Sequence record: NC_052656.1
DNA: 64,000 nt
Source of the DNA: Escherichia phage anhysbys
Reading direction: 5' to 3' (one strand)
The stretch's first letter is position 1. The number at the start of each line of letters is the position of its first letter. Below, piece after piece: positions 1 through 62,498 of the stretch. The position numbers and the translations under genes were made by a program. The notes below the pieces were generated by a model, which was not told the origin of the DNA, made no database searches, and saw only the letters and a program-made list of their open reading frames with translations.

Positions 1-194
1 AGTATGATGGCAAGTTTCCGTGGGAGAAAGATGTTTGTGCCTGTGATTCAGCAGCACATGCCAAAGCAGCGGGTCAGGCAGTAGTTGACATGTATAACAA
101 CACCCCCTTTGATCCAGAAATGGCAGGTGTTACAATGAGCATGTTCACTTACTATTCTTTTGAGGTTTACTATCACGAAGGAGAGTGGAAATGA
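1..194 (+). CDS. hypothetical protein (5'-truncated at window edge)
   Basis: Frame open from position 3 to TGA at 192-194; stop overlaps next start (ATGA). Confidence 0.4.
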   Translation, partial: YDGKFPWEKDVCACDSAAHAKAAGQAVVDMYNNTPFDPEMAGVTMSMFTYYSFEVYYHEGEWK

Positions 195-511
195 GCGAAG
201 AGCTATTAACATTTTACCGCACGTATTTGGCATGGTTGGAAGCTGGTGCTCCTGAAGGTGAACCGTTCACCCGTTGCACAGGTTTGTGCACGAACCTCTA
301 TGATTTTTACGACATAGGAGAAAGCGAACGATACGAACCTGTACTGGATGAAATGCATGAGCAGTTCTACCTCAAAGGTTTGGTTATGGTGTTGCCTTTC
401 AACAGTAATTTTGGAAAGTACACCTTAGAAGCGGAAAAAGGCCGTTGTCATTTGAATGTGGATCGTGTGAACTGGGTAAAAGAACGTGTAGCAGAAGAAA
501 TAATTGGTTGA
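191..511 (+). CDS. hypothetical protein, paralog family 1 (C-terminal D-R-V-x-W-V-K-E-R-V motif)
   Basis: ORF track 185..511; ATG at 191 follows AGGAG; C-terminus aligns with ORFs at 3029 and 4334. Confidence 0.55.
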   Translation: MSEELLTFYRTYLAWLEAGAPEGEPFTRCTGLCTNLYDFYDIGESERYEPVLDEMHEQFYLKGLVMVLPFNSNFGKYTLEAEKGRCHLNVDRVNWVKERVAEEIIG

Positions 512-565
512 CAGAAGGATCTGTCTTTGTCATAATCGTCTCATCGAAACAGAGAGGAGAAAATC

Positions 566-1031: not shown

Positions 1032-1331
1032 ATGCAAGTTGAAGACCTGATCCACATTCTGAATAAAGCTAAAGAGAAGGGTGCTATCAAAGACTGGAAA
1101 CGTGAAACAAGTGAAGATTTATCTCATTGTTGCCGAGAATTTTACATCGAAGGTATTGCTGACGATCATTATACTATTGAATGGTATATCAACTTAATGA
1201 CTCTTAAGCACGGTTCATTTGAGGTTTGGTTTGATGATATTGATGTAAATGGTTTCCATCCTGGCTATAAAATCGCTATGCAGTTATCTTATCGTAGAGA
1301 AGTTGTAGCACATTTGGGTTTACATAACTAA
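1032..1331 (+). CDS. hypothetical protein
   Basis: 99-aa ORF preceded by aaaggagag RBS. Confidence 0.5.
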   Translation: MQVEDLIHILNKAKEKGAIKDWKRETSEDLSHCCREFYIEGIADDHYTIEWYINLMTLKHGSFEVWFDDIDVNGFHPGYKIAMQLSYRREVVAHLGLHN

Positions 1332-8460: not shown

Positions 8461-8742
8461 ATGGAACTCGTTCAAGAATTGTATAATGCTTTAGGAGCAA
8501 AAGGAAAAGATTGGCCCGAACATGCGCTTATTGCTATAAGAGACTCCGATGGTGAGATTAAGTTTTCAAGCGTAAGTAAAGAGCACATCGTAGAAACAAA
8601 ACTGGGTATTTACATGCGTGGAACTTATTGCTTATTCAACACCAGAATGGTAGAAGCCCCTGTTATCGAGGATGGAACAAAAGATTGCCCCACAATCGTA
8701 ACAAAATCTGAATATGAGAAGTTTTTCTACGCTAAGGCTTGA
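8461..8742 (+). CDS. hypothetical protein
   Basis: 93-aa ORF with aaggagg RBS. Confidence 0.5.
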   Translation: MELVQELYNALGAKGKDWPEHALIAIRDSDGEIKFSSVSKEHIVETKLGIYMRGTYCLFNTRMVEAPVIEDGTKDCPTIVTKSEYEKFFYAKA

Positions 8743-8787
8743 CACAGAAACAATACTATAGGATAGTGATCCTATCGTAGCAATAGA

Positions 8788-8808
8788 ACCCGCTTCGGCG
8801 GGTTTTTT
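8788..8808 (+). terminator. intrinsic terminator (UUCG tetraloop)
   Basis: ACCCGC-TTCG-GCGGGT followed by TTTTTT. Confidence 0.7.
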
Positions 8809-18043: not shown

Positions 18044-18089
18044 AATCCCTCCTTAAAAATACTCCCTCCGAAAAGGGAGTATAAGTATA

Positions 18090-31914: not shown

Positions 31915-31955
31915 ATTTTTGTCAATAAAAAAGGGAGCAATAAGCTCCCTGATTA

Positions 31956-32915: not shown

Positions 32916-33601
32916 TCTGCCTCCTGTTGTGAGATGTATGACTGAAGCATACTCTCAAATGTTGTATCGTCATTATCCCAGCGTTTCATGTATACCAACT
33001 GGAAAATTGTTTCTATCCATTCATCTGTTGTCATATGGACTTCTTCTCCATCCCAAGAAGTAAAATTAACGCCATCTGGGAACCACGAGTAGTAAGTATC
33101 TTTAACTGTTTGGAAAAGTTCTGCTTGAGTTTTACAAGCTGAAAGAAGATTAAAACAAGTAATATCTCCGAACTTAATATCAAAATCTTGATAAGGTCGG
33201 ATACTATCTGTTTTATCTCCCATTAGCATCTGATAGGCTAACCAATAACTTCCCCAACCTTTAACTTCTTTCTTTTTACCTTTATCTACGATCCATATGT
33301 CGCCAATAGACTCGTCAATAAGAATTATATCTGGATTTTTAAATACTCCATCCTCTTTGTAGAAATTAAAAAGGATACTAGGAGTATGTAAACTATCTTT
33401 ATCTATAGACACTACGATATAAGAAAATTTACCCGTCCTTTTATAATCTTTATAACCTTGGAAACCATACTTCTCTAACTCATCGTCAGCCTCTATTACA
33501 GTAACAACATCACCATTGTGGAACTCCACAAGATAATCTTTGGTTTCTGAAAGCTGAAGTGGTTTGATATCTAATCGTTCAGATTTATATTCTACAGGCA
33601 T
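32912..33601 (-). CDS. hypothetical protein (possible PD-(D/E)xK-like nuclease)
   Basis: 229-aa ORF; IILIDESIGDIWIVDKGKK resembles a D...E.K core; ATG 33601 has only a weak RBS. Confidence 0.45.
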   Translation of the reverse strand: MPVEYKSERLDIKPLQLSETKDYLVEFHNGDVVTVIEADDELEKYGFQGYKDYKRTGKFSYIVVSIDKDSLHTPSILFNFYKEDGVFKNPDIILIDESIGDIWIVDKGKKKEVKGWGSYWLAYQMLMGDKTDSIRPYQDFDIKFGDITCFNLLSACKTQAELFQTVKDTYYSWFPDGVNFTSWDGEEVHMTTDEWIETIFQLVYMKRWDNDDTTFESMLQSYISQQEAE

Positions 33602-34038
33602 TTTGAAGGCGTGTCTGAAAGTTTTTCCTACGCCAATAACTCCGCAATATTTTTCTAAACGTAGATGTTTTAGAATACCTAAGACTTTTGTTTTAGCTGC
33701 TTGGAAGGTGTGTCCGATATCTTCTGGCGGGTATTGCTTATCAATAATTTCGAACTCTTCCTTTGTGAAGGGACGTTTGTTTTTGGAGGCTCTTTCTGCA
33801 TTTGTATCTCCTAGCCAACCTCCAATTTTAGTCTTACTTTTACCCCAAAACTCTGTCTTATTTTTAAATTCCTTTTGAGCACCTGAAGGGATGTGCTTCG
33901 CAATGATTGTTCTTTTCTCTAATGCAGACGCTGCTTGGAAAGCGATCTGATCATAATCAATTGCAGCTATTGTTTCTTCGTTGACATATAAATGAAGATC
34001 TTCAGGTTTAATTAAAATATAACCGCTAATATTTCCCC
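33595..34038 (-). other. 148-codon stop-free open frame lacking any ATG/GTG/TTG (possible non-canonical start, recoding, or pseudogene)
   Basis: Minus frame read codon by codon from TAG at 34039-34041 to TAG at 33592-33594 with no stop; K/E-rich protein-like translation; different frame from both neighbours. Confidence 0.35.
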
Positions 34039-34042
34039 CTAA

Positions 34043-34252
34043 TTATTCATCGTCATCCTCTGTTGAGAATGTTTTAGTATACGGACATTGACGACTTTTC
34101 GGGATTGCTATAACTTCATCTTGGTTAGCGTTAGAATAGTAGCAATATTTTGTGTTGCCATTAACTTCAGAATCAGACAAGATTAAAGTAATTTGACCTG
34201 CTGCTACTGTGAAACTAAAAGCTAAAAGAACGACTGTCAGAATCTTTTTCAT
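34043..34252 (-). CDS. small secreted/lipoprotein-like protein
   Basis: N-terminal signal-peptide-like MKKILTVVLLAFSFTVAAG; own promoter and AGGAGG RBS. Confidence 0.55.
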   Translation of the reverse strand: MKKILTVVLLAFSFTVAAGQITLILSDSEVNGNTKYCYYSNANQDEVIAIPKSRQCPYTKTFSTEDDDE

Positions 34253-34260
34253 AACGCCTC

Positions 34261-34291
34261 CTAAAAAGCCTACCTCATTAAGTAGGTAGGC
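34261..34291 (-). terminator. intrinsic terminator overlapping the downstream promoter
   Basis: Minus-strand GCCUACCU-ACUUAAUG-AGGUAGGC followed by UUUUUAG. Confidence 0.55.
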
Positions 34292-34320
34292 ATAATATCA
34301 TAACTAATCCCGCAAGTCAA
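34292..34320 (-). promoter_or_regulatory. sigma70-like promoter (TTGACT-17-TATTAT)
   Basis: Minus-strand TTGACT (34315-34320), 17-nt spacer, TATTAT (34292-34297); predicted start falls inside the terminator 5' arm. Confidence 0.55.
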
Positions 34321-34324
34321 GAAC

Positions 34325-35203
34325 TTATTTAAGGATTGTTGCTTTGGTTAAATCTTCCATCAGACCTCGAATCTCATTGAAGCACAGAAGGACTGAAGCT
34401 TCAATACTACCTTCTTCGTCTGCAAAATATTTCGGAAAACGTAGTTTAGAAAGTTTAAACTCTTTATCCACTACAAAATCTACAACACCATCATATTCAA
34501 GACCGATTGCAACCACATCTTTACCATCTTCTTTTAGTTCGACAGCTTTAGACTCGTATAGGGATTCTTTACTCCAAACAACAACGCCCTCGCTATCCTC
34601 CATTTTGATATAATTTCCGAGAGTAATACGATCTGCTTCGTGATTCTCCAACAATTCGCCAAAACCTTTTACAATAGCTTCTTCGTGCACACTAAAACCT
34701 ACCGAAGGGAAAGTCCCCAGAACGGAACGGAGGAAAGAAGTAATCTCTTCTGCAACCTTTTTACTTCCATTAAGAACATAAAGAAGATTCGTAGTTTTAT
34801 CCAAGACAACATAGTTAAAGAAATCTTCAGGTTCTGTTTCAGGCAATAGTGCAAATTCAATATCTTCCTTCATTGCTTTGACTACTTCTTTATCAACATA
34901 AAACTCTTTACCTTCGCTCCCCATGTCCTGACGCATTTCTTCTAGACGTTCATTCAGAATACGTTTAACTTTCTTTTTATCTACTTTCTTCACAGATTGA
35001 CCTACATTAAGTAGTTCAAGATCTGAAAACTCTTTTACAAATTTAGAGTCATCTTCGAAACGAACAAGACCGATAGTGTGTGACTGGGAGCCTTCTGCCG
35101 TTACAAATTCCAGAGGAATATCTGTAATGCTGTTAAGGGATGCTACAGAAGCATTGTCACCAACAACCATAGGCAGAGCGGATTTAAAAGATTTTACAAA
35201 CAT
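34325..35203 (-). CDS. putative RdgC-like recombination-associated protein
   Basis: 292 aa; overall pattern resembles RdgC from memory only. Confidence 0.35.
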   Translation of the reverse strand: MFVKSFKSALPMVVGDNASVASLNSITDIPLEFVTAEGSQSHTIGLVRFEDDSKFVKEFSDLELLNVGQSVKKVDKKKVKRILNERLEEMRQDMGSEGKEFYVDKEVVKAMKEDIEFALLPETEPEDFFNYVVLDKTTNLLYVLNGSKKVAEEITSFLRSVLGTFPSVGFSVHEEAIVKGFGELLENHEADRITLGNYIKMEDSEGVVVWSKESLYESKAVELKEDGKDVVAIGLEYDGVVDFVVDKEFKLSKLRFPKYFADEEGSIEASVLLCFNEIRGLMEDLTKATILK

Positions 35204-35259
35204 GTTTCCTCCTATTTAATACATCTCACATTACCGCCCATAAAGGGCGGCTTACAACA

Positions 35260-35985
35260 TTACTTGTTAATAATACCTGCAATATTAGGTTTGACAAAGG
35301 TCGATGGTTTCATGATCTTACCTTTATCATCAAAGAATACATACACTTTCTGTTTTTCATTATAAACAGCATGAACACCAGTGTATGCCCCTTCTGGACG
35401 ATTGGCATTTCGTTCTTCAATTGCAGCGCATTCTTGTGCAATTGCTGAATCGATATCTGAAGTTTTCCAGGTTTTCAGCAACTGTTGTTTAGTTGGATAC
35501 TTGGAATCATTACTTTTCAATACCTCTTTAATAACTTTCTTTTCTGGATATTTTGAACGGATTAGAGTGTCACGAGACATACGCATAATACCAGCAGCCA
35601 TTAGTGCCATTTGAACTGGCTCTGTAAATGTTTGTTCCAAAGCATCGAAATCGGTATACACAGTTGGAGTAAAAACATCGCCTACAGCATAGTCCAAGAA
35701 ATTCATCGTATGTTCTTCACCAAAGAACATGTAAGTCAGATAACTGGATACTACAAAAATATCCGCTGCTGCATCCAAGAGTTCTACATGATCGTTTACT
35801 TTCGCGGCTGTTTCATACTCTTTAAGCTCTTCACGAACGAACCCGATTTGGGACATAAATAGCTCTTGAGTGAATTCAGGTTGTTCACCACCTCGTGCTT
35901 TGGCATTCCAATCAATCACGTGCTTTGCTGCATTTTTGAAAAATTCAGTATCGAATTTAATATCTTTAAAAAAATTCTCGATCAT
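35260..35985 (-). CDS. putative MazG-like nucleotide pyrophosphohydrolase
   Basis: REELKEYETAAKVNDHVELLDAAADIFVV resembles the MazG EExxE...D helix motif. Confidence 0.4.
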   Translation of the reverse strand: MIENFFKDIKFDTEFFKNAAKHVIDWNAKARGGEQPEFTQELFMSQIGFVREELKEYETAAKVNDHVELLDAAADIFVVSSYLTYMFFGEEHTMNFLDYAVGDVFTPTVYTDFDALEQTFTEPVQMALMAAGIMRMSRDTLIRSKYPEKKVIKEVLKSNDSKYPTKQQLLKTWKTSDIDSAIAQECAAIEERNANRPEGAYTGVHAVYNEKQKVYVFFDDKGKIMKPSTFVKPNIAGIINK

Positions 35986-35994
35986 TATAACTCC

Positions 35995-36177
35995 TTATTT
36001 AAAATAGCTTTCTAGAAAGTTGCTAATATTTACTACAGTCTCACCCATGTAAATTCCTGCGAAACCGAAAACAAGCATACGTGGAATATTGAAATACCAT
36101 TTATCCGCCGGAAAAGATGCCAGAATTACAATAGCAATTGCTATCAACATCATAAGAATTGTTGCTAAAATTATCAT
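35995..36177 (-). CDS. small membrane protein
   Basis: Start moved to ATG 36177 (ATGA overlap with upstream stop); two hydrophobic helices. Confidence 0.4.
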   Translation of the reverse strand: MIILATILMMLIAIAIVILASFPADKWYFNIPRMLVFGFAGIYMGETVVNISNFLESYFK

Positions 36178-43305: not shown

Positions 43306-43536
43306 TCTAGCCTCCTAAACGCGTCTCTGACGCACTTTTTATATATAAGATGATAAATCACCTTACCTAGTAAGTAAACTTGCTCTACGAGCCTCTTATG
43401 AAGCTTGTGTTATAGGCTATACTATTGCTACCTGTTTAAGCAAGGTTTTTGCGCACAGAAAATAATTTTTAATAAAACTCTTGACTTTTGTGTTCGAAGT
43501 ATGCTACCCTAGAAATCTATTAACGAGCGCAGCGAG

Positions 43537-43562
43537 TTAAGGTTTTAAGGTTTTAAGGTTGT
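43537..43562. repeat. tandem repeat, about 3 copies of AAGGTTTT
   Basis: ttaaggttttaaggttttaaggtt read directly. Confidence 0.8.
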
Positions 43563-43569
43563 TGATGTA

Positions 43570-43601
43570 GTACTCTGTACTCAAGTACTGTACTCCGTAC
43601 T
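43570..43601. repeat. cluster of five GTACT pentamers
   Basis: GTACT at 43570, 43577, 43585, 43590 and 43597. Confidence 0.7.
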
Positions 43602-43604
43602 AGA

Positions 43605-43618
43605 TTAATAATTATTAA
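43605..43618. repeat. perfect 14-bp palindrome TTAATAATTATTAA
   Basis: Read directly; sits in an AT-only tract. Confidence 0.7.
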
Positions 43619-43735
43619 ATATTAATAATAAATAATTATTAGATCTAACAAACAGGTATAGTGTATCAGAACTGGTACGTACAGATCAACTTCTATCAAT
43701 TAAAAATAAAATAATAAATTATTATAAATAATACT

Positions 43736-43749
43736 TGATCTATAGATCA
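43736..43749. repeat. perfect 14-bp palindrome TGATCTATAGATCA
   Basis: Read directly, about 45 bp upstream of the first plus-strand late-block ORF. Confidence 0.7.
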
Positions 43750-43795
43750 GTATGAAGTACAGTACGGAACATCTTAACAAGAATGGAGGTGTGCA

Positions 43796-43981
43796 ATGAT
43801 TAGTGAGAATCCGTGCAAATGGCATCATGTGCCTATTAAAGATTGTATGTCTTGTAATCCACGTTCTATTTATAACATTGCATCTTATGATGACGACAAT
43901 GTGTTAGACGATGATGAAGGCTGGGAGGATTTAGATTGGACTGGTTATGAAACCAAAAAGGATAAAATTATTCCTAGTTGA
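43796..43981 (+). CDS. hypothetical Cys-rich small protein
   Basis: 61-aa ORF with ggagg RBS. Confidence 0.45.
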   Translation: MISENPCKWHHVPIKDCMSCNPRSIYNIASYDDDNVLDDDEGWEDLDWTGYETKKDKIIPS

Positions 43982-44018
43982 CTTAAGATATCCTTCGTGC
44001 TAAACTAGAAGTGAGGAG

Positions 44019-44270
44019 ATGCCGATCACTCCCCATTTGGGGTTCGAAGGATATATGCAAAATAGCTTTTATTTTAGGTGCCGTGCTTGTAATAGGCATT
44101 TGACAAACCACTCCAGACGTGATAAAAATGGAGTCATCAAGGAATCAGACCTCTGTTCTATTTGCACAGGTTTGGCTTTTGATGATAGTCCCGAAAGGGT
44201 TTATCAGCATCAATGTATAACAGACGTTCTCGTGTCAAACTTGGTAGAGGACGAACAACTAACAGATTAG
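44019..44270 (+). CDS. hypothetical Cys-rich protein
   Basis: 83 aa; CRACNRH ... CSICTG. Confidence 0.45.
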   Translation: MPITPHLGFEGYMQNSFYFRCRACNRHLTNHSRRDKNGVIKESDLCSICTGLAFDDSPERVYQHQCITDVLVSNLVEDEQLTD

Positions 44271-44278
44271 GAGGAACA

Positions 44279-44527
44279 ATGTCTCTATTAGAAAAACACG
44301 TGTTTGAAGATGGTAACGGCAACGCAGTTTTTCTTTTCCATCCAGAAAAATACACATCTGAAAACAATGGTACAACTTCTATTGTAATCACTAAAGATGT
44401 TAAAGTTATTGATTTCTTGGCTCTGATGCGAGAGATGGATCTTGAAATTAATACTTTTAACGCAGAAGCTTTGGTTGTTGCTCTTCTGGAAAAGAAAGAT
44501 AGTGAAGAAGTAGCAGAATATGCTTAA
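44279..44527 (+). CDS. hypothetical protein
   Basis: Start moved to ATG 44279 after aggagg. Confidence 0.45.
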   Translation: MSLLEKHVFEDGNGNAVFLFHPEKYTSENNGTTSIVITKDVKVIDFLALMREMDLEINTFNAEALVVALLEKKDSEEVAEYA

Positions 44528-44534
44528 ATAACTA

Positions 44535-44564
44535 TTGACAAACGTATCCTTCATATGTTAGGAT
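44535..44564 (+). promoter_or_regulatory. sigma70-like promoter (CTATTGACAA family)
   Basis: TTGACA at 44535-44540, about 18-nt spacer, TAGGAT. Confidence 0.4.
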
Positions 44565-44773
44565 ACGTTCATCAAGTGTGGTAACAGGGTCGTTGACTTT
44601 TGTTAAGAGGGGCTTGCACTGCGGTAGTGTTAGAGACTACTTCTTCAGAGGTTAGCTACCAAAGAGGAAAAGGAATAGTCTCGGCTCAAGAACTTTTACG
44701 CTGAAAGTTGGGCTTGGTCTTAGAGAATGTAGCGGTTCTCTACAATCGTCAGCGTCTCTGTTACCACATTTAT

Positions 44774-44848
44774 GGCCCTGTAGCTCAATGGGAGAGCTGT
44801 CGGCTCATAACCGATAGGTAGCTGGATCGAAACCAGCCAGGGCCACCA
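44774..44848 (+). tRNA. tRNA-Met (anticodon CAT)
   Basis: Manual cloverleaf: acceptor GGCCCTG/CAGGGCC, loop CTCATAA, T-arm GCTGG-ATCGAAA-CCAGC, encoded CCA. Confidence 0.8.
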
Positions 44849-44850
44849 AC

Positions 44851-44925
44851 GTCTTTATGGTGTAATGGATAGCACAGGAGTCTTCTAAACTCTTAGTCAA
44901 GGTTCGATTCCTTGTAAAGACACCA
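44851..44925 (+). tRNA. tRNA-Arg (anticodon TCT)
   Basis: Acceptor GTCTTTA/TAAAGAC, loop CTTCTAA, T-loop TTCGATT, encoded CCA. Confidence 0.8.
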
Positions 44926-45120
44926 GAACATTTTAACATGAATTAGCTCAAGTGATTTGAACCCACTACTGATCATGGTGGCAGAGAATGAGGCAAGTAT
45001 GTCAGACATTATAAACAAAGGCCACGGTTATATTAGAAGACATAAATGCTCGAAGAGCACCGTTCGTTGAGAACGGGGGTTGGTGGAGTCACCATTCATG
45101 GTAAAATGTTTTAAAAACTA

Positions 45121-45150
45121 TTGACAACTAACATTATTTTATGTTAGATT
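45121..45150 (+). promoter_or_regulatory. sigma70-like promoter (CTATTGACAA family)
   Basis: TTGACA at 45121-45126, 18-nt spacer, TAGATT. Confidence 0.4.
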
Positions 45151-45158
45151 ATAAGTAT

Positions 45159-45249
45159 GGAAGGGCAAATCGACGTGGCGACGAAAACGGTCTTGAAAAC
45201 CGCCGAGCTTGAAAGAGCCTTGGGAGTTCGACTCTCCCTCCTTCCGCCA
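45159..45249 (+). tRNA. tRNA-Ser (anticodon TGA), class II
   Basis: Acceptor GGAAGGG/TCCTTCC, loop CTTGAAA, long variable arm, T-arm GGGAG-TTCGACT-CTCCC, encoded CCA. Confidence 0.75.
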
Positions 45250-45254
45250 GATTA

Positions 45255-45340
45255 GGTAGATTGGTGAAATGGTAGCCACAACAGTTTGCTAAACTGTAGT
45301 CGGAAACGGCGTGTAGGTTCGAGTCCTACATCTACCGCCA
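45255..45340 (+). tRNA. tRNA-Ser (anticodon GCT), class II
   Basis: Acceptor GGTAGAT/ATCTACC, stem ACAGT/ACTGT with loop TTGCTAA, long variable arm, encoded CCA. Confidence 0.8.
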
Positions 45341-45470
45341 AGTTCTTTTTAATATAGCTTACTTTAATAGAGTAAACTTTCGGCAGATGGCCTCCACCAT
45401 CTTACCGATAACTCATAGTTAGTGGTGTGAACACTGGCTATTTTAAAAAGAATTTAAATATTAGTATTTA

Positions 45471-45558
45471 GGTGAGTTAATTCCGTAGGGGTAGCGGGGC
45501 AGACTGTAAATCTGTTATCATTGCGATTCGGGTGGTTCGACTCCATCACTCACCACCA
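45471..45558 (+). tRNA. tRNA-Tyr (anticodon GTA), class II
   Basis: Acceptor GGTGAGT/ACTCACC, loop CTGTAAA, long variable arm, T-arm GGTGG-TTCGACT-CCATC, encoded CCA. Confidence 0.75.
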
Positions 45559-45564
45559 AATTAA

Positions 45565-45650
45565 GATGAGTTGGCTGAATGGTTTAAGCGGCGGACTGTT
45601 AATCCGTGTTCGAAAGAACGATATAGGTTCAAATCCTATACTCATCGCCA
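45565..45650 (+). tRNA. class II tRNA with anticodon GTT (Asn-decoding by anticodon, isotype uncertain)
   Basis: Acceptor GATGAGT/ACTCATC, stem GCGGA/TCCGT with loop CTGTTAA, variable-arm hairpin GTTC-GAAA-GAAC, T-arm ATAGG-TTCAAAT-CCTAT, encoded CCA. Confidence 0.6.
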
Positions 45651-45657
45651 GAATTAT

Positions 45658-45734
45658 GGACTTGTAGAGTTAAGGTAAACCCCCAGTCGCCAAGAGGCTT
45701 CTGGAATTGCAGGTATCGAATCCTGCCGAGTCCC
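45658..45734 (+). tRNA. tRNA-like element with non-canonical anticodon arm (possible pseudo-tRNA)
   Basis: 7-bp acceptor GGACTTG/CGAGTCC and T-stem GCAGG/CCTGC with 8-nt loop TATCGAAT, but no standard 5-bp/7-nt anticodon stem-loop; no CCA. Confidence 0.3.
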
Positions 45735-45740
45735 AGCTTT

Positions 45741-45815
45741 GCTCCTATAGTATAATGGCTATTACAACGGTTTTGTAATCCGTGGATCTCTGTTCGATTC
45801 AGAGTGGGAGCACCA
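45741..45815 (+). tRNA. tRNA-Thr (anticodon TGT)
   Basis: Acceptor GCTCCTA/TGGGAGC, loop TTTGTAA, T-arm CTCTG-TTCGATT-CAGAG, encoded CCA. Confidence 0.75.
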
Positions 45816-46088
45816 ACACAACATTAAGGGCACTGTGATTGATCGTCGTATCCTGTGCACAAGGTCTGTTCGAAAGACAGTGTTCTTAGTATTGTGTTGA
45901 TCACACAAAGAGTCACCTGAAACTTGACCGGAGTAGGGTTGGATGGGGCAAAAGAAGAAGCGGCTCTCCCATCGACAGCAACGAAGAATAATATTTGACT
46001 TTGGTTTTGTATTATTTTAAGTTAGCTTACCGAACGTAGGGCTAGTCACCCAATGGGATACTCGTCACTGTCCCACTCAATAAAACTA

Positions 46089-46118
46089 TTGACAACCAAT
46101 AGTAAAATGTAGTATAGT
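46089..46118 (+). promoter_or_regulatory. sigma70-like promoter (CTATTGACAA family)
   Basis: TTGACA at 46089-46094, 18-nt spacer, TATAGT. Confidence 0.45.
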
Positions 46119-46129
46119 AAAGATGTAGG

Positions 46130-46203
46130 GCGTTCTTGGTGTAGCGGTAGCATTCCGTCCTTCCAAGTCGGCGGCACGAGTTCGATCCTCGTAGAACGCT
46201 CCA
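46130..46203 (+). tRNA. tRNA-Gly (anticodon TCC)
   Basis: Acceptor GCGTTCT/AGAACGC, loop CTTCCAA, T-arm ACGAG-TTCGATC-CTCGT, encoded CCA. Confidence 0.75.
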
Positions 46204-46301
46204 AATTATTTAATAAAGGGTTGCCAGAAAACTTTCTCTTTTACTCATGGTTTTCTCCTTCTCTCACACCTCTTCTGGTTGCCCTTCATTAAATGATTTA
46301 T

Positions 46302-46376
46302 TGGTTTGTAGTGTAGTCCGGTAGCACACGACACTTTGACTGTCGTAGGTTTGGTTCAAATCCAGACAGACCAGCC
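46302..46376 (+). tRNA. tRNA-Gln (anticodon TTG)
   Basis: U1-A72 acceptor TGGTTTG/CAGACCA with discriminator G, stem CGACA/TGTCG with loop CTTTGAC, encoded CCA. Confidence 0.8.
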
Positions 46377-46382
46377 ATATAA

Positions 46383-46459
46383 CGGAATTTAGCTCAGTTT
46401 GGTAGAGCATACGCTTTGGGAGCGTAGGGTCGCAGGTTCGAATCCTGCAATTCCGACCA
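46383..46459 (+). tRNA. tRNA-Pro (anticodon TGG)
   Basis: C1-G72 acceptor CGGAATT/AATTCCG, stem TACGC/GCGTA with loop TTTGGGA, T-loop TTCGAAT, encoded CCA. Confidence 0.8.
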
Positions 46460-46465
46460 ATCAAA

Positions 46466-46539
46466 TGTTTCGTAGTTCAATGGTAGAACCCACGACTGAT
46501 AATCGTGAGACACAAGTTCGATTCTTGTCGAAACAACCA
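46466..46539 (+). tRNA. tRNA-Ile (anticodon GAT)
   Basis: Acceptor TGTTTCG/CGAAACA, stem CACGA/TCGTG with loop CTGATAA, T-arm ACAAG-TTCGATT-CTTGT, encoded CCA. Confidence 0.75.
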
Positions 46540-46541
46540 GT

Positions 46542-46611
46542 TTCCCGTTAGACTTACAGGATAAGAGTTCCACAACTTATTGTGATGCTGGTTCGAATCC
46601 AGCACGGGATA
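46542..46611 (+). tRNA. tRNA-like element with non-canonical anticodon arm (possible pseudo-tRNA)
   Basis: Acceptor TTCCCGT/ACGGGAT (1-72 mismatch) and canonical T-arm GCTGG-TTCGAAT-CCAGC, but middle folds only as CACAA-CTTA-TTGTG; no CCA. Confidence 0.3.
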
Positions 46612-46617
46612 CATAAT

Positions 46618-46696
46618 AGCGGGATAGAGGAGTCTGGTCGTCCTCGCCAGTTTCATATGCTGGAGATCATCGGTTCAAATCCGATTCCCGCCTCCA
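46618..46696 (+). tRNA. tRNA-Met (anticodon CAT), second copy, initiator/Ile2 not excluded
   Basis: Acceptor AGCGGGA/TCCCGCC with A1.C72 mismatch, stem CCAGT/GCTGG with loop TTCATAT, T-arm ATCGG-TTCAAAT-CCGAT, encoded CCA. Confidence 0.65.
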
Positions 46697-46811
46697 AATA
46701 TCGCTTGCCAGCGGTATCTTTGAAGACCTTGCCTGGTTCCTTCTAAGATGGAGGGGTGCGACTCCTTAACGCACAATTATAATAAAGCATTTCAAATTAA
46801 CAGTATTTATT

Positions 46812-46835
46812 AGCCTCCTTATTGGAGGCTTTTTG
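46812..46835 (+). terminator. intrinsic terminator closing the tRNA cluster
   Basis: AGCCTCC-ttatt-GGAGGCT followed by TTTTT. Confidence 0.7.
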
Positions 46836-46853
46836 CTATCTATTGAATAAAAC

Positions 46854-46882
46854 TTGACTTATTATTTTTTATATGTTAAGAT
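46854..46882 (+). promoter_or_regulatory. sigma70-like promoter
   Basis: TTGACT at 46854-46859, 17-nt spacer, TAAGAT. Confidence 0.35.
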
Positions 46883-46903
46883 AAAGTTTAGGAGGATTTT
46901 ATT

Positions 46904-50271: not shown

Positions 50272-50300
50272 TTGACAAAAGTCACTTTAAAGTGTATTAT
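50272..50300 (+). promoter_or_regulatory. strong sigma70-like promoter (TTGACA-17-TGnTATTAT)
   Basis: TTGACA 50272-50277, 17-nt spacer, TG-extended TATTAT 50295-50300, upstream of portal gene. Confidence 0.55.
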
Positions 50301-50369
50301 AACTAGATAGGTGAGGTTGTATATAATACAGCCTTGCCTTAACGATTTTATACCTGACTGGAGGAACAA

Positions 50370-62372: not shown

Positions 62373-62379
62373 TAAAATA

Positions 62380-62402
62380 CCTCGCTTCGGCGGGGTTTTT
62401 TC
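62380..62402 (+). terminator. intrinsic terminator (UUCG tetraloop) after tape measure gene
   Basis: CCTCGC-TTCG-GCGGGG followed by TTTTTT. Confidence 0.65.
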
Positions 62403-62498
62403 GTTTCCCTTGACACGAAGTTTCTATATGTGTTACAATAATCAATATGGGAAGATCTTGCGTCTTCCTTTTGGCATTATCATTACCACGAGGTTATC

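Follow-up and report, generated by a model that had tools for sequence, protein, structure and literature searches.

On the minus strand of the window (the whole stretch of DNA that was analysed, 64 kb), a short intergenic region separates an RdgC-like gene from a gene for a small secreted protein, and in it a promoter-like sequence lies directly against a terminator-like hairpin (Table 1). The question raised by this locus is whether the region ends one transcript, starts the next or does both and, if both, how RNA made from the promoter gets past the hairpin in front of it. Our reading, which we consider probable, is that a single element of about 60 bases is a terminator-promoter overlap: it ends the transcript from the rdgC side and starts the next one, whose own RNA escapes.

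The phage group is that of the phAPEC8-like phages (Stephanstirmvirinae, genus Phapecoctavirus), and across positions 33000-36000 the window shares 99% identity with many Escherichia phages in this genus, e.g., dw-ec and ESCO13. The element sits within a 34-kb block of minus-strand genes (approximately 43300 to 9100) for replication, recombination and nucleotide metabolism. This block is proposed to be early and transcribed by the host sigma-70 RNA polymerase. The RdgC-like gene has the same annotation in ESCO13.

Table 1 Features of the locus in the direction of transcription (coordinates are those of the window)
Feature	Position	Strand	Remarks
MazG-like pyrophosphohydrolase gene	35985-35260	minus	first in the gene order listed
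RdgC-like recombination-associated protein, 292 aa	35203-34325	minus	Pfam RdgC PF04381, E = 7e-22; PHROG 724
Stop codon TAA of the RdgC-like gene	34327-34325	minus	
GTTC		minus	4 nt between the rdgC-like stop and the -35 hexamer
-35 hexamer TTGACT	34320-34315	minus	5/6 matches to the consensus (TTGACA); 4 nt past the rdgC-like stop
Spacer TGCGGGATTAGTTATGA, 17 nt	34314-34298	minus	ends in TGA (34300-34298), the TGn of an extended -10
-10 hexamer TATTAT	34297-34292	minus	5/6 matches to TATAAT
Hairpin GCCTACCT / ACTTAATG / AGGTAGGC	34291-34268	minus	first base directly after the -10; 8 perfect pairs, 5 of them G-C
Parts of the hairpin	5' arm 34291-34284; loop (8 nt) 34283-34276; 3' arm 34275-34268	minus	
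T-tract TTTTT	34267-34263	minus	predicted terminator tail; also opens the downstream unit's 5' UTR
Shine-Dalgarno sequence AGGAGG	34262-34257	minus	4 nt (CGTT) before the ATG at 34252; RBS annotated in ESCO13 and phi92
Small secreted protein, 69 aa	34252-34043	minus	PHROG 4641, E = 7e-27 over the full length
5'-exonuclease gene	34030-32912	minus	PHROG 107; conserved N-terminus starts at an ATT codon
Exonuclease-subunit gene	32915-31956	minus	last gene of the inferred unit
Terminator hairpin with TTTTTT, then promoter TTGACA-17-TATACT	31950-31932 (hairpin); 31925-31897 (promoter)	minus	classical order; inferred end of the unit

The promoter, the hairpin and the small protein

A first-pass annotation of this DNA had read a near-consensus promoter, TTGACT-17-TATTAT, on the minus strand, and every one of its elements is present. 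In a consensus scan it has 10 of 12 matches with a TG ahead of the -10. It combines a -35 hexamer, a spacer within 17 ± 1 bp that carries TGn and a -10 hexamer, as a sigma-70 promoter does, and it fits the type found in the phage's own intergenic regions (TTGACW-17/18, TGn frequent). Sigma-70-type promoters, many of them with an extended -10, have also been predicted in rV5-like phages (PMC3606486). Taken alone, promoter-like matches are near chance in this 38% G+C genome, with 34 found in 9 kb vs. 27.9 expected.

The same annotation had placed a perfect hairpin with an 8-bp stem and a U-tract directly after the promoter, and this too was confirmed. The hairpin is the strongest terminator-like site of the region in our scan and folds by itself with -12.7 kcal/mol. 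Its G+C-rich stem in the sense RNA, closed at the base by GCC/GGC and followed directly by the U-tract, has the makeup predicted for an intrinsic terminator. The loop of 8 nt is at the long end of the terminator range. Because of this large loop and a tract of only 5 U, termination may be partial. Terminator-like sites are enriched in the 9 kb scanned (17 found vs. 4.6 expected). In the annotation of ASO2A the hairpin is a terminator, by prediction only, and published annotation of the site is limited to this, with neither a promoter nor an overlap recorded. A search of positions 33800-34800 against Rfam 15 gave no family at the gathering score, and the sub-threshold matches (E of at least 0.5) are at chance level. 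A known RNA family was therefore rejected.

The co-occurrence of promoter and hairpin was compared with a chance baseline of 100 dinucleotide-preserving shuffles of the 64-kb window. Promoters with at least 10 of 12 matches are followed by a terminator-like hairpin within 0-3 nt twice in the window (0.09 expected), once in the element at 34320 and once in an antisense match inside a coding region. At distances of 0-20 nt there are six such pairs, vs. 0.27 ± 0.53 in the shuffles (maximum 2). The combination is rare, though promoter matches alone are not significant.

Downstream, the ribosome-binding site and the signal-peptide protein of 69 aa that had been described from the sequence were both borne out. 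The N-terminus, MKKILTVVLLAFSFTVAA/GQ, is that of a Sec-type signal peptide of 18 aa, with an n-region KK, a hydrophobic core and V-A-A/G at its end, and gp086, the orthologue in phi92, is annotated with a signal peptide (SignalP probability 1.000). In the alignment of the PHROG 4641 family, the mature peptide of ~50 aa has two invariant Cys and an acidic tail. A read-through fusion of the small ORF with the exonuclease was considered and rejected, as their reading frames agree in the window but not in phi92.

Conservation of the element among related phages

Relatives were collected from GenBank at DNA identities of ~75% (phiWec190 and PsgM04F), ~70% (the Justusliebigvirus phages phi92 and EmilieFrey), ~68% (Klebsiella phages FKP3 and phi1_175008) and 67% (Citrobacter phage Tr1). 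To these we added 13 IMG/VR contigs, down to 41-46% RdgC identity, by a search with an RdgC alignment. The alignment retrieved 13 loci, as against one with a single protein. Together the sequences contain 13 distinct versions of the promoter-hairpin core, or 16 when the flanking sequence is counted.

All 13 versions have TTGAC(T/A), a spacer of 17-18 nt, TG and TAnnAT, followed at a gap of 0 nt by a hairpin of -10 to -15 kcal/mol. Positions T1, A2, A5 and T6 of the -10 are invariant in all relatives, as are TTGAC and TG. The gap between the -10 and the hairpin stays at 0 nt although indels hit every other segment of the intergenic region. The distance from the stop codon to the -35 ranges over 3-6 nt and that from the stem to the ATG over 15-20 nt. 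The sequence of the spacer differs between versions (TGCGGGATTAGTTATGA, CGCTCAGTCTAGTTATGT and TCCGAAGTCTAATCGTGA), the loop has 5-8 nt, the stem varies in length, and the stem sequence falls into three unrelated families (GCCTACCT/AGGTAGGC, GCCCTTC/GAAGGGC and GCCTCTCA/TGAGAGGC). The 8 bases after the stem include 3-7 T in the relatives; most have 4-7, and FKP3 and phi1_175008 have 3 (tail ATTATGAG, compared with TTCATTGA in Tr1).

A covariance model trained only on the nine window-type sequences detects the hairpin at the homologous site and on the sense strand in lineages L024 (24.9 bits), L019/L022 (18.3) and L018 (15.5), all of which are outside its training set and have stem sequences different from those in it. 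Base pairs were counted in the covariance-model alignment of 13 sense-strand rows (12 of them distinct); MAFFT had misplaced the 3' arm of the shorter hairpins. In the 12 distinct rows, 90 of 93 pair cells hold standard pairs, and when the 3' partner is slid by 1-3 columns the paired cells drop to between 24/63 and 60/93. Compensatory changes are found at pair 4 (TA/TG/CG), pair 5 (AT/TA/CG) and pair 6 (CG/TG/TA). Three wobble pairs are U-G in the sense RNA and A.C on the other strand, which gives 90/93 in sense and 87/93 in antisense.

Both parts of the element are present, they abut, and because the hexamers are fixed amid varying sequence and the stem changes are compensatory, both are under selection. 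Fixed points amid free change are the footprint expected of a sigma-70 promoter in use and of a hairpin selected for its structure; the conserved hexamers are a sign of selection and not proof of activity in infection. To judge from the aligned sequences, conservation across the relatives settles that the element is real, and no other line of evidence is as strong. The pairing data favour an RNA structure in transcripts that run in the direction of the genes and speak against a DNA operator.

More distant homologues of the small protein have the hairpin shifted upstream over the -10 or the spacer, and never downstream. Klebsiella phage KP13-16 has a hairpin of 10-12 bp (z = -5.2) whose loop contains the TGnTA of the -10. 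The Seunavirus phages 4MG and FENT2 have a different upstream gene, and in them a promoter with 11 of 12 matches (TTGACA-18-TATCAT) is wrapped in a 12-bp plus a 7-bp hairpin, and the 3' arm of the hairpin begins with the -10 (z = -4.7 to -6). A comparable case in the window, at (+)508-536, has a stop codon inside TTGACA and a 6-bp hairpin with TTTGT that fills the spacer before CATAAT. In all of these registers the hairpin is upstream of the expected start. Since the promoter's own RNA would lack a complete hairpin, they are consistent with the escape model. The U-tract is absent in KP13-16 and the Seunavirus phages and weak in FKP3 and phi1_175008, and the hairpin is kept. Because it persists where the U-tract is weak or absent, termination is perhaps not its only role, and it may also shield the 3' end of the upstream RNA or serve as a pause site.

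Other layouts are found elsewhere in the window. At 31950/31925 and 13543/13520 the order is the classical one, terminator then promoter, and the T-tract leads straight into TTGACA. Other promoters have hairpins 9-17 nt past the -10, a position that would correspond to the RNA's 5' end. The sites (-)10822, (+)62410 and (+)8739 are nearer to the promoter-then-terminator layout of phage lambda. A second candidate for an abutting pair, at 18089/18082 (an extended -10, TGATATACT, with a 10-bp terminator), was rejected, its promoter part not being conserved in phiWec190 and JohannJBalmer.

Expected start site, proposed escape and alternative readings

E. coli RNA polymerase usually starts 7 nt past the -10, within a range of 6-9 nt, and prefers a purine after a pyrimidine. 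The bases after TATTAT are G C C T A C C T A, with C34285 at position 7 and A34283, preceded by T, at position 9, and a Y-A step is found 8-9 nt past the -10 in every lineage. The start is accordingly expected between C34286 and A34283, ~6-9 nt past the -10, as far as the letters can tell. As a start 7-9 nt past the -10 is expected, the 5' arm (positions 1-8) would be the discriminator and would remain largely or wholly untranscribed from its own promoter. No mapped start site, 3' end or transcriptome for Phapecoctavirus, Justusliebigvirus or rV5-like phages was found in the searchable literature.

Folding of RNAs with different starts agrees with this geometry. Only RNAs that begin at 34291 or further upstream retain the whole terminator hairpin, and those that start at least 8 nt past the -10 (34284 onwards) have no terminator-like hairpin. 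Starts 6-7 nt past the -10 leave a weak stem, CCUACUU-AAUG-AGGUAGG in a shifted register, after which come C and UUUUU; it has -6.5 kcal/mol from C34286 and -3.2 kcal/mol from C34285.

The mechanism we propose is as follows. RNA arriving from the rdgC side would contain the complete 8-bp hairpin and UUUUU, and many of these transcripts would end at ~34262-34258, with release some bases into the U-tract or within the Shine-Dalgarno sequence and ahead of the ATG. Directly ahead of the hairpin, the putative extended -10 sigma-70 promoter (TTGACT-N14-TGA-TATTAT) would have its discriminator filled by the 5' arm, and initiation at or past the end of that arm would give a new RNA that lacks it. Without the 5' arm, RNA from the promoter would be unable to fold the terminator and would continue across the gene for the small secreted protein and both exonuclease genes, up to the 31950 terminator. 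The scan found no further terminator-like site on the minus strand between the element and 31950-31932, and the unit is therefore probably ~2.4 kb long and includes the small gene and both exonuclease genes. The start site, the efficiency of termination and the extent of the unit are what we infer from the arrangement of the elements.

Measured against this, the interpretation given in the first-pass annotation is partly supported: it is largely correct, and its "insulated independent module" is overstated. Its proposal that read-through from upstream terminates while RNA from the promoter escapes gains from the geometry and from the 0-nt gap in 13 of 13 versions; the start of the promoter's RNA is expected at or beyond the 5' arm. 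The unit probably goes beyond the small gene and takes in the 5'-exonuclease and exonuclease-subunit genes. As for insulation, the point of release is downstream of the promoter, so that polymerases from upstream traverse it, and the analogous tufB-secE arrangement couples its units (PMC6735719). Because upstream polymerases would cross the promoter before terminating, the two units are probably not independent of each other but linked through promoter occlusion, polymerase recycling or both.

The zero-gap fusion could be a selected coupling device and not mere compaction, with occlusion or polymerase hand-over as the route; we give this a small but appreciable chance. By occlusion, heavy upstream transcription would hold the promoter down until early transcription wanes, which would time the operon of the small periplasmic protein and the exonuclease. 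By hand-over, the host polymerase would free its RNA at the U-tract, stay on the DNA and re-initiate at the promoter 30 bp behind. A downstream termination point, which makes every upstream polymerase traverse the promoter, suits both routes. Precedents exist for each, in the tufB-secE overlap, which lowers secE-nusG expression when tufB transcription rises (PMC6735719), and in E. coli polymerase, which at an intrinsic terminator can stay bound to the DNA and start anew from the closest promoter (PMC11347151). The invariance of the gap amid indels everywhere else in the element also points to a link, as does the recurrence of a hairpin-promoter overlap before the small-protein gene in two phage subfamilies, even with a different upstream gene (Seunavirus); the device may belong with the PHROG 4641 gene in particular. 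Against this, compaction alone could account for the overlap, and the genome also uses the classical order (31950/31925 and 13543/13520), so that no single logic is enforced.

Three further readings do without one half of the overlap or give the hairpin another task. One takes the hairpin as a 5'-terminal stem-loop that stabilises the RNA made from this promoter, or as a leader structure in that RNA, in the shifted register. That register, of 7 bp, is present in the window at 34286-34269, where a CCTAC-CTAC repeat allows it, and FKP3 and phi1_175008, whose full register contains a T.T mismatch, have it in perfect form; the hairpins 9-17 nt past the -10 at other promoters of the window would fit the same task. 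However, the shifted register is broken in Tr1, and lineages L018 and L024, in which different stems abut the -10 in the usual way, lack it; as a general explanation it was rejected on these grounds. The full register is moreover the more stable one everywhere (-10 to -15 kcal/mol), in KP13-16 and the Seunavirus phages the whole hairpin precedes the expected start, and a stabiliser would be expected downstream of +1 and not over the discriminator. We judge this reading quite unlikely. Very unlikely, in our estimate, is a site that is a terminator only, whose promoter-like hexamers are inactive in infection and whose downstream genes are reached by read-through of a leaky terminator. Consensus promoter matches that are no commoner than chance in an A+T-rich genome (34 vs. 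27.9) would allow it, published annotations call the site a terminator and nothing else, and the 8-nt loop and 5 U suggest leakiness. It is at odds with the 13 sequences in which TTGAC, TG and T-A-n-n-A-T never change and the 14 intervening bases differ freely in sequence but not in length, and with the match of the element to the phage's other intergenic promoters. The third reading, a DNA operator at which a dimeric phage or host regulator represses the promoter, draws on an 8-bp inverted repeat, perfect and with 8 bp at its centre, over the start site (+1 to +16), the classical position of a repressor. The stem sequence is nevertheless replaced with pairing kept (GCCCTTC/GAAGGGC; GCCTCTCA/TGAGAGGC), stem and loop lengths vary, the wobble pairs are valid in the sense RNA only, and a T-tract follows in most lineages. 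We rejected the operator on the turnover of the stem with its pairing kept and on the sense-only wobble pairs, and regard it as extremely improbable. The terminator-promoter overlap with escape of its own RNA is the reading we retain.

Meaning of the overlap and comparison with known systems

For annotation, the site would be recorded not as a terminator alone but as the probable start of a ~2.4-kb unit with a secreted small protein and two exonuclease genes. As a natural part it is compact: 60 nt would end one transcript and start another, with the new RNA escaping by way of an untranscribed 5' arm. The design rule, a terminator whose 5' arm is placed in the discriminator, is easy to test and to reuse in synthetic constructs. 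Overlaps of this kind have so far been studied mainly in host ribosomal operons, and the present one would extend them to a lytic phage that depends on the host polymerase. The element would also serve as a small and well-conserved model for occlusion or polymerase recycling between adjacent units.

Terminator-promoter overlap is of a kind known from bacterial operons, and no new category is opened. The closest known case is the operon concatenation of tufB-secE. In Salmonella, the terminator of tufB and the promoter of secE-nusG overlap, and more tufB transcription leads to less secE-nusG expression (PMC6735719). In the E. coli sequence, a TAA is followed after 13 nt by TTGACG and by a hairpin, GGGCATCA-TTTG-ATGCCC with TTTTT, that lies over the spacer and the -10. 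As in that case, the phage has a co-directional downstream promoter just past the upstream stop (13 nt in tufB-secE, 4 nt in the phage), which adjoins and overlaps the intrinsic terminator of the upstream gene, with termination predicted downstream of the -35, an expected start beyond the 5' arm of the hairpin and conservation over long evolutionary distances. The two differ in register, in that the tufB-secE hairpin is inside the spacer and -10 of TTGACG-18-CATCAT, whereas the phage hairpin comes directly after the -10 and fills the discriminator. They differ in setting, a ribosomal-protein supercluster there and a lytic phage here. Coupling by the level of upstream transcription, through occlusion, was shown experimentally for tufB-secE only (PMC6735719); for the phage element it is a proposal.

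Compared with classical punctuation, the phage element likewise brings a hairpin, a T-tract and a sigma-70 promoter into one short intergenic region and would do the same job. The classical order of terminator then promoter protects the promoter. In the phage element the promoter comes before the terminator, so that upstream polymerases cross it before release, and escape depends on a start inside or after the hairpin. Phage lambda PR'-tR' resembles the element in having a strong sigma-70 promoter and an intrinsic terminator within tens of bases. There, however, the full terminator is transcribed from the lambda promoter and Q is required to pass it, whereas here the 5' arm is upstream of the expected start and an antiterminator would be unneeded.

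E. coli RNA polymerase that slides on the DNA after termination favours re-initiation, upstream or downstream (Kang et al. 2020 and Harden et al. 2020, reviewed in PMC11347151). The phage terminator is within ~30 bp of a promoter, as such recycling would have it; recycling is a property of the host enzyme and not of a sequence family, and its operation at the phage site is hypothetical. Set beside these systems, what is new here appears to be a clean phage case with a distinct register, in which the 5' arm is the predicted discriminator, and with deep conservation.

Hairpin-wrapped promoters before the small secreted protein

In the Vequintavirinae, a different subfamily, homologues of the small secreted protein likewise have a hairpin-wrapped promoter upstream. 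The hairpin of Seunavirus 4MG and FENT2 comprises 12 + 7 bp, and the -35 element itself is paired with downstream sequence. No U-tract follows the hairpin in KP13-16, 4MG or FENT2. Since the Vequintavirinae homologues keep this arrangement despite a different upstream gene (that of 4MG and FENT2 is not the one in the window), the hairpin-promoter overlap seems, from the sequence comparison, to travel with the small secreted-protein gene.

Promoters, hairpins and related features in the window and in stored loci from related phages (L numbers)
Feature	Position	Strand	Context or basis
Promoter wrapped in long hairpin	L011 (Seunavirus 4MG) 1141-1206		Before small secreted protein homologue
Promoter wrapped in long hairpin	L012 (Seunavirus FENT2) 1101-1164		Before small secreted protein homologue
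Promoter wrapped in long hairpin	L010 (KP13-16) 1108-1166		Before small secreted protein homologue
G+C-rich 7-bp hairpin, GCCGCCC-TTTAT-GGGCGGT	Window 35251-35233	-	Between MazG-like gene and rdgC
Terminator, promoter, hairpin in series	Window 62379-62469	+	Sequence scan
Promoter-then-hairpin, like 62379-62469	Window 8739-8806	+	
Promoter-then-hairpin, like 62379-62469	Window 50272-50339	+	
Near-consensus promoter and terminator	Window 10822-10754; L029 (phi92) 13756	- (window)	Scan and comparison
Extended -10-like TGATATACT and terminator	Window 18112-18059	-	Scan and comparison
tRNA cluster, 10 genes	Window 44774-46696, within region 43400-46900	+	
ATT at start of 5'-exonuclease conserved N-terminus	Window 34030-34028; L009 ~1374; L003 ~967	- (window)	Sequence comparison
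Fully nested promoter/hairpin overlap	Window 508-536	+	Sequence scan

Other promoters and hairpins in the window

Promoter-then-hairpin layouts are enriched in the 64-kb window, with 6 observed against 0.27 expected. In the series starting at 62379, a terminator (62379-62396) precedes the promoter TTGACA-18-TACAAT with TG (62410-62439), and the hairpin GGGAAGA-TCTTG-CGTCTTCCT, followed by TTTGG, begins 9 nt past the -10. At 10822-10754, a promoter, TTGACA-18-TATAGT with TG, sits within the end of a coding region; a strong 11-bp terminator with a T-tract lies 14 nt past it, and the next gene's RBS comes after that. RNA from this promoter would carry the full terminator, and the site might be the source of a short RNA or need antitermination. 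phi92 keeps this layout, although its stem sequence differs and its promoter scores 12/12.

An apparent second abutting case was rejected. At 18112-18059, TGATATACT lies 1 nt ahead of a 10-bp terminator (ATACTCCCTT..AGGGAGTAT) followed by TTTTT and AAGGAGG, the -35 is poor (AAGACA), and the promoter part is not kept in phiWec190 or JohannJBalmer. The hairpin upstream of rdgC, a terminator according to the ASO2A annotation, has no T-tract after it; its role may rather lie in RNA stability or processing. Among the tRNA genes of 43400-46900 there are at least seven promoters of the form TTGACW-17/18-TAnnnT, mostly with TGn. Short tandem motifs, namely (AACCTTAA)x3 and repeats of GAGTAC, occur at 43560-43605, directly ahead of the minus-strand block.

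Start codon of the 5'-exonuclease gene

The conserved N-terminus of the 5'-exonuclease (PHROG 107), I-S-G-Y-I-L-I-(K/Q)-P-E-D-L-H, has no ATG, GTG or TTG; its first codon is ATT in the window, phi92 and phiWec190, and in all three a Shine-Dalgarno-like GGGGGA or AGGAGG lies 3-4 nt before it. RefSeq ESCO13 annotates the gene from the same ATT, and other records cut it to 229 aa or begin it at GTG. These features suggest a conserved AUU start codon like that of infC, and initiation could be IF3-sensitive.

A nested overlap in the register of tufB-secE

At 508-536, the TGA stop of an ORF (185-511, plus strand) falls within the -35 TTGACA. The spacer is occupied by the hairpin GACAGA-AGGA-TCTGTC (510-525) with TTTGT, after which come CATAAT with TG and the next gene. 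The logic is identical to that of the minus-strand overlap at 34320-34263, and the register is that of the host tufB-secE case, where the secE promoter overlaps the tufB terminator.
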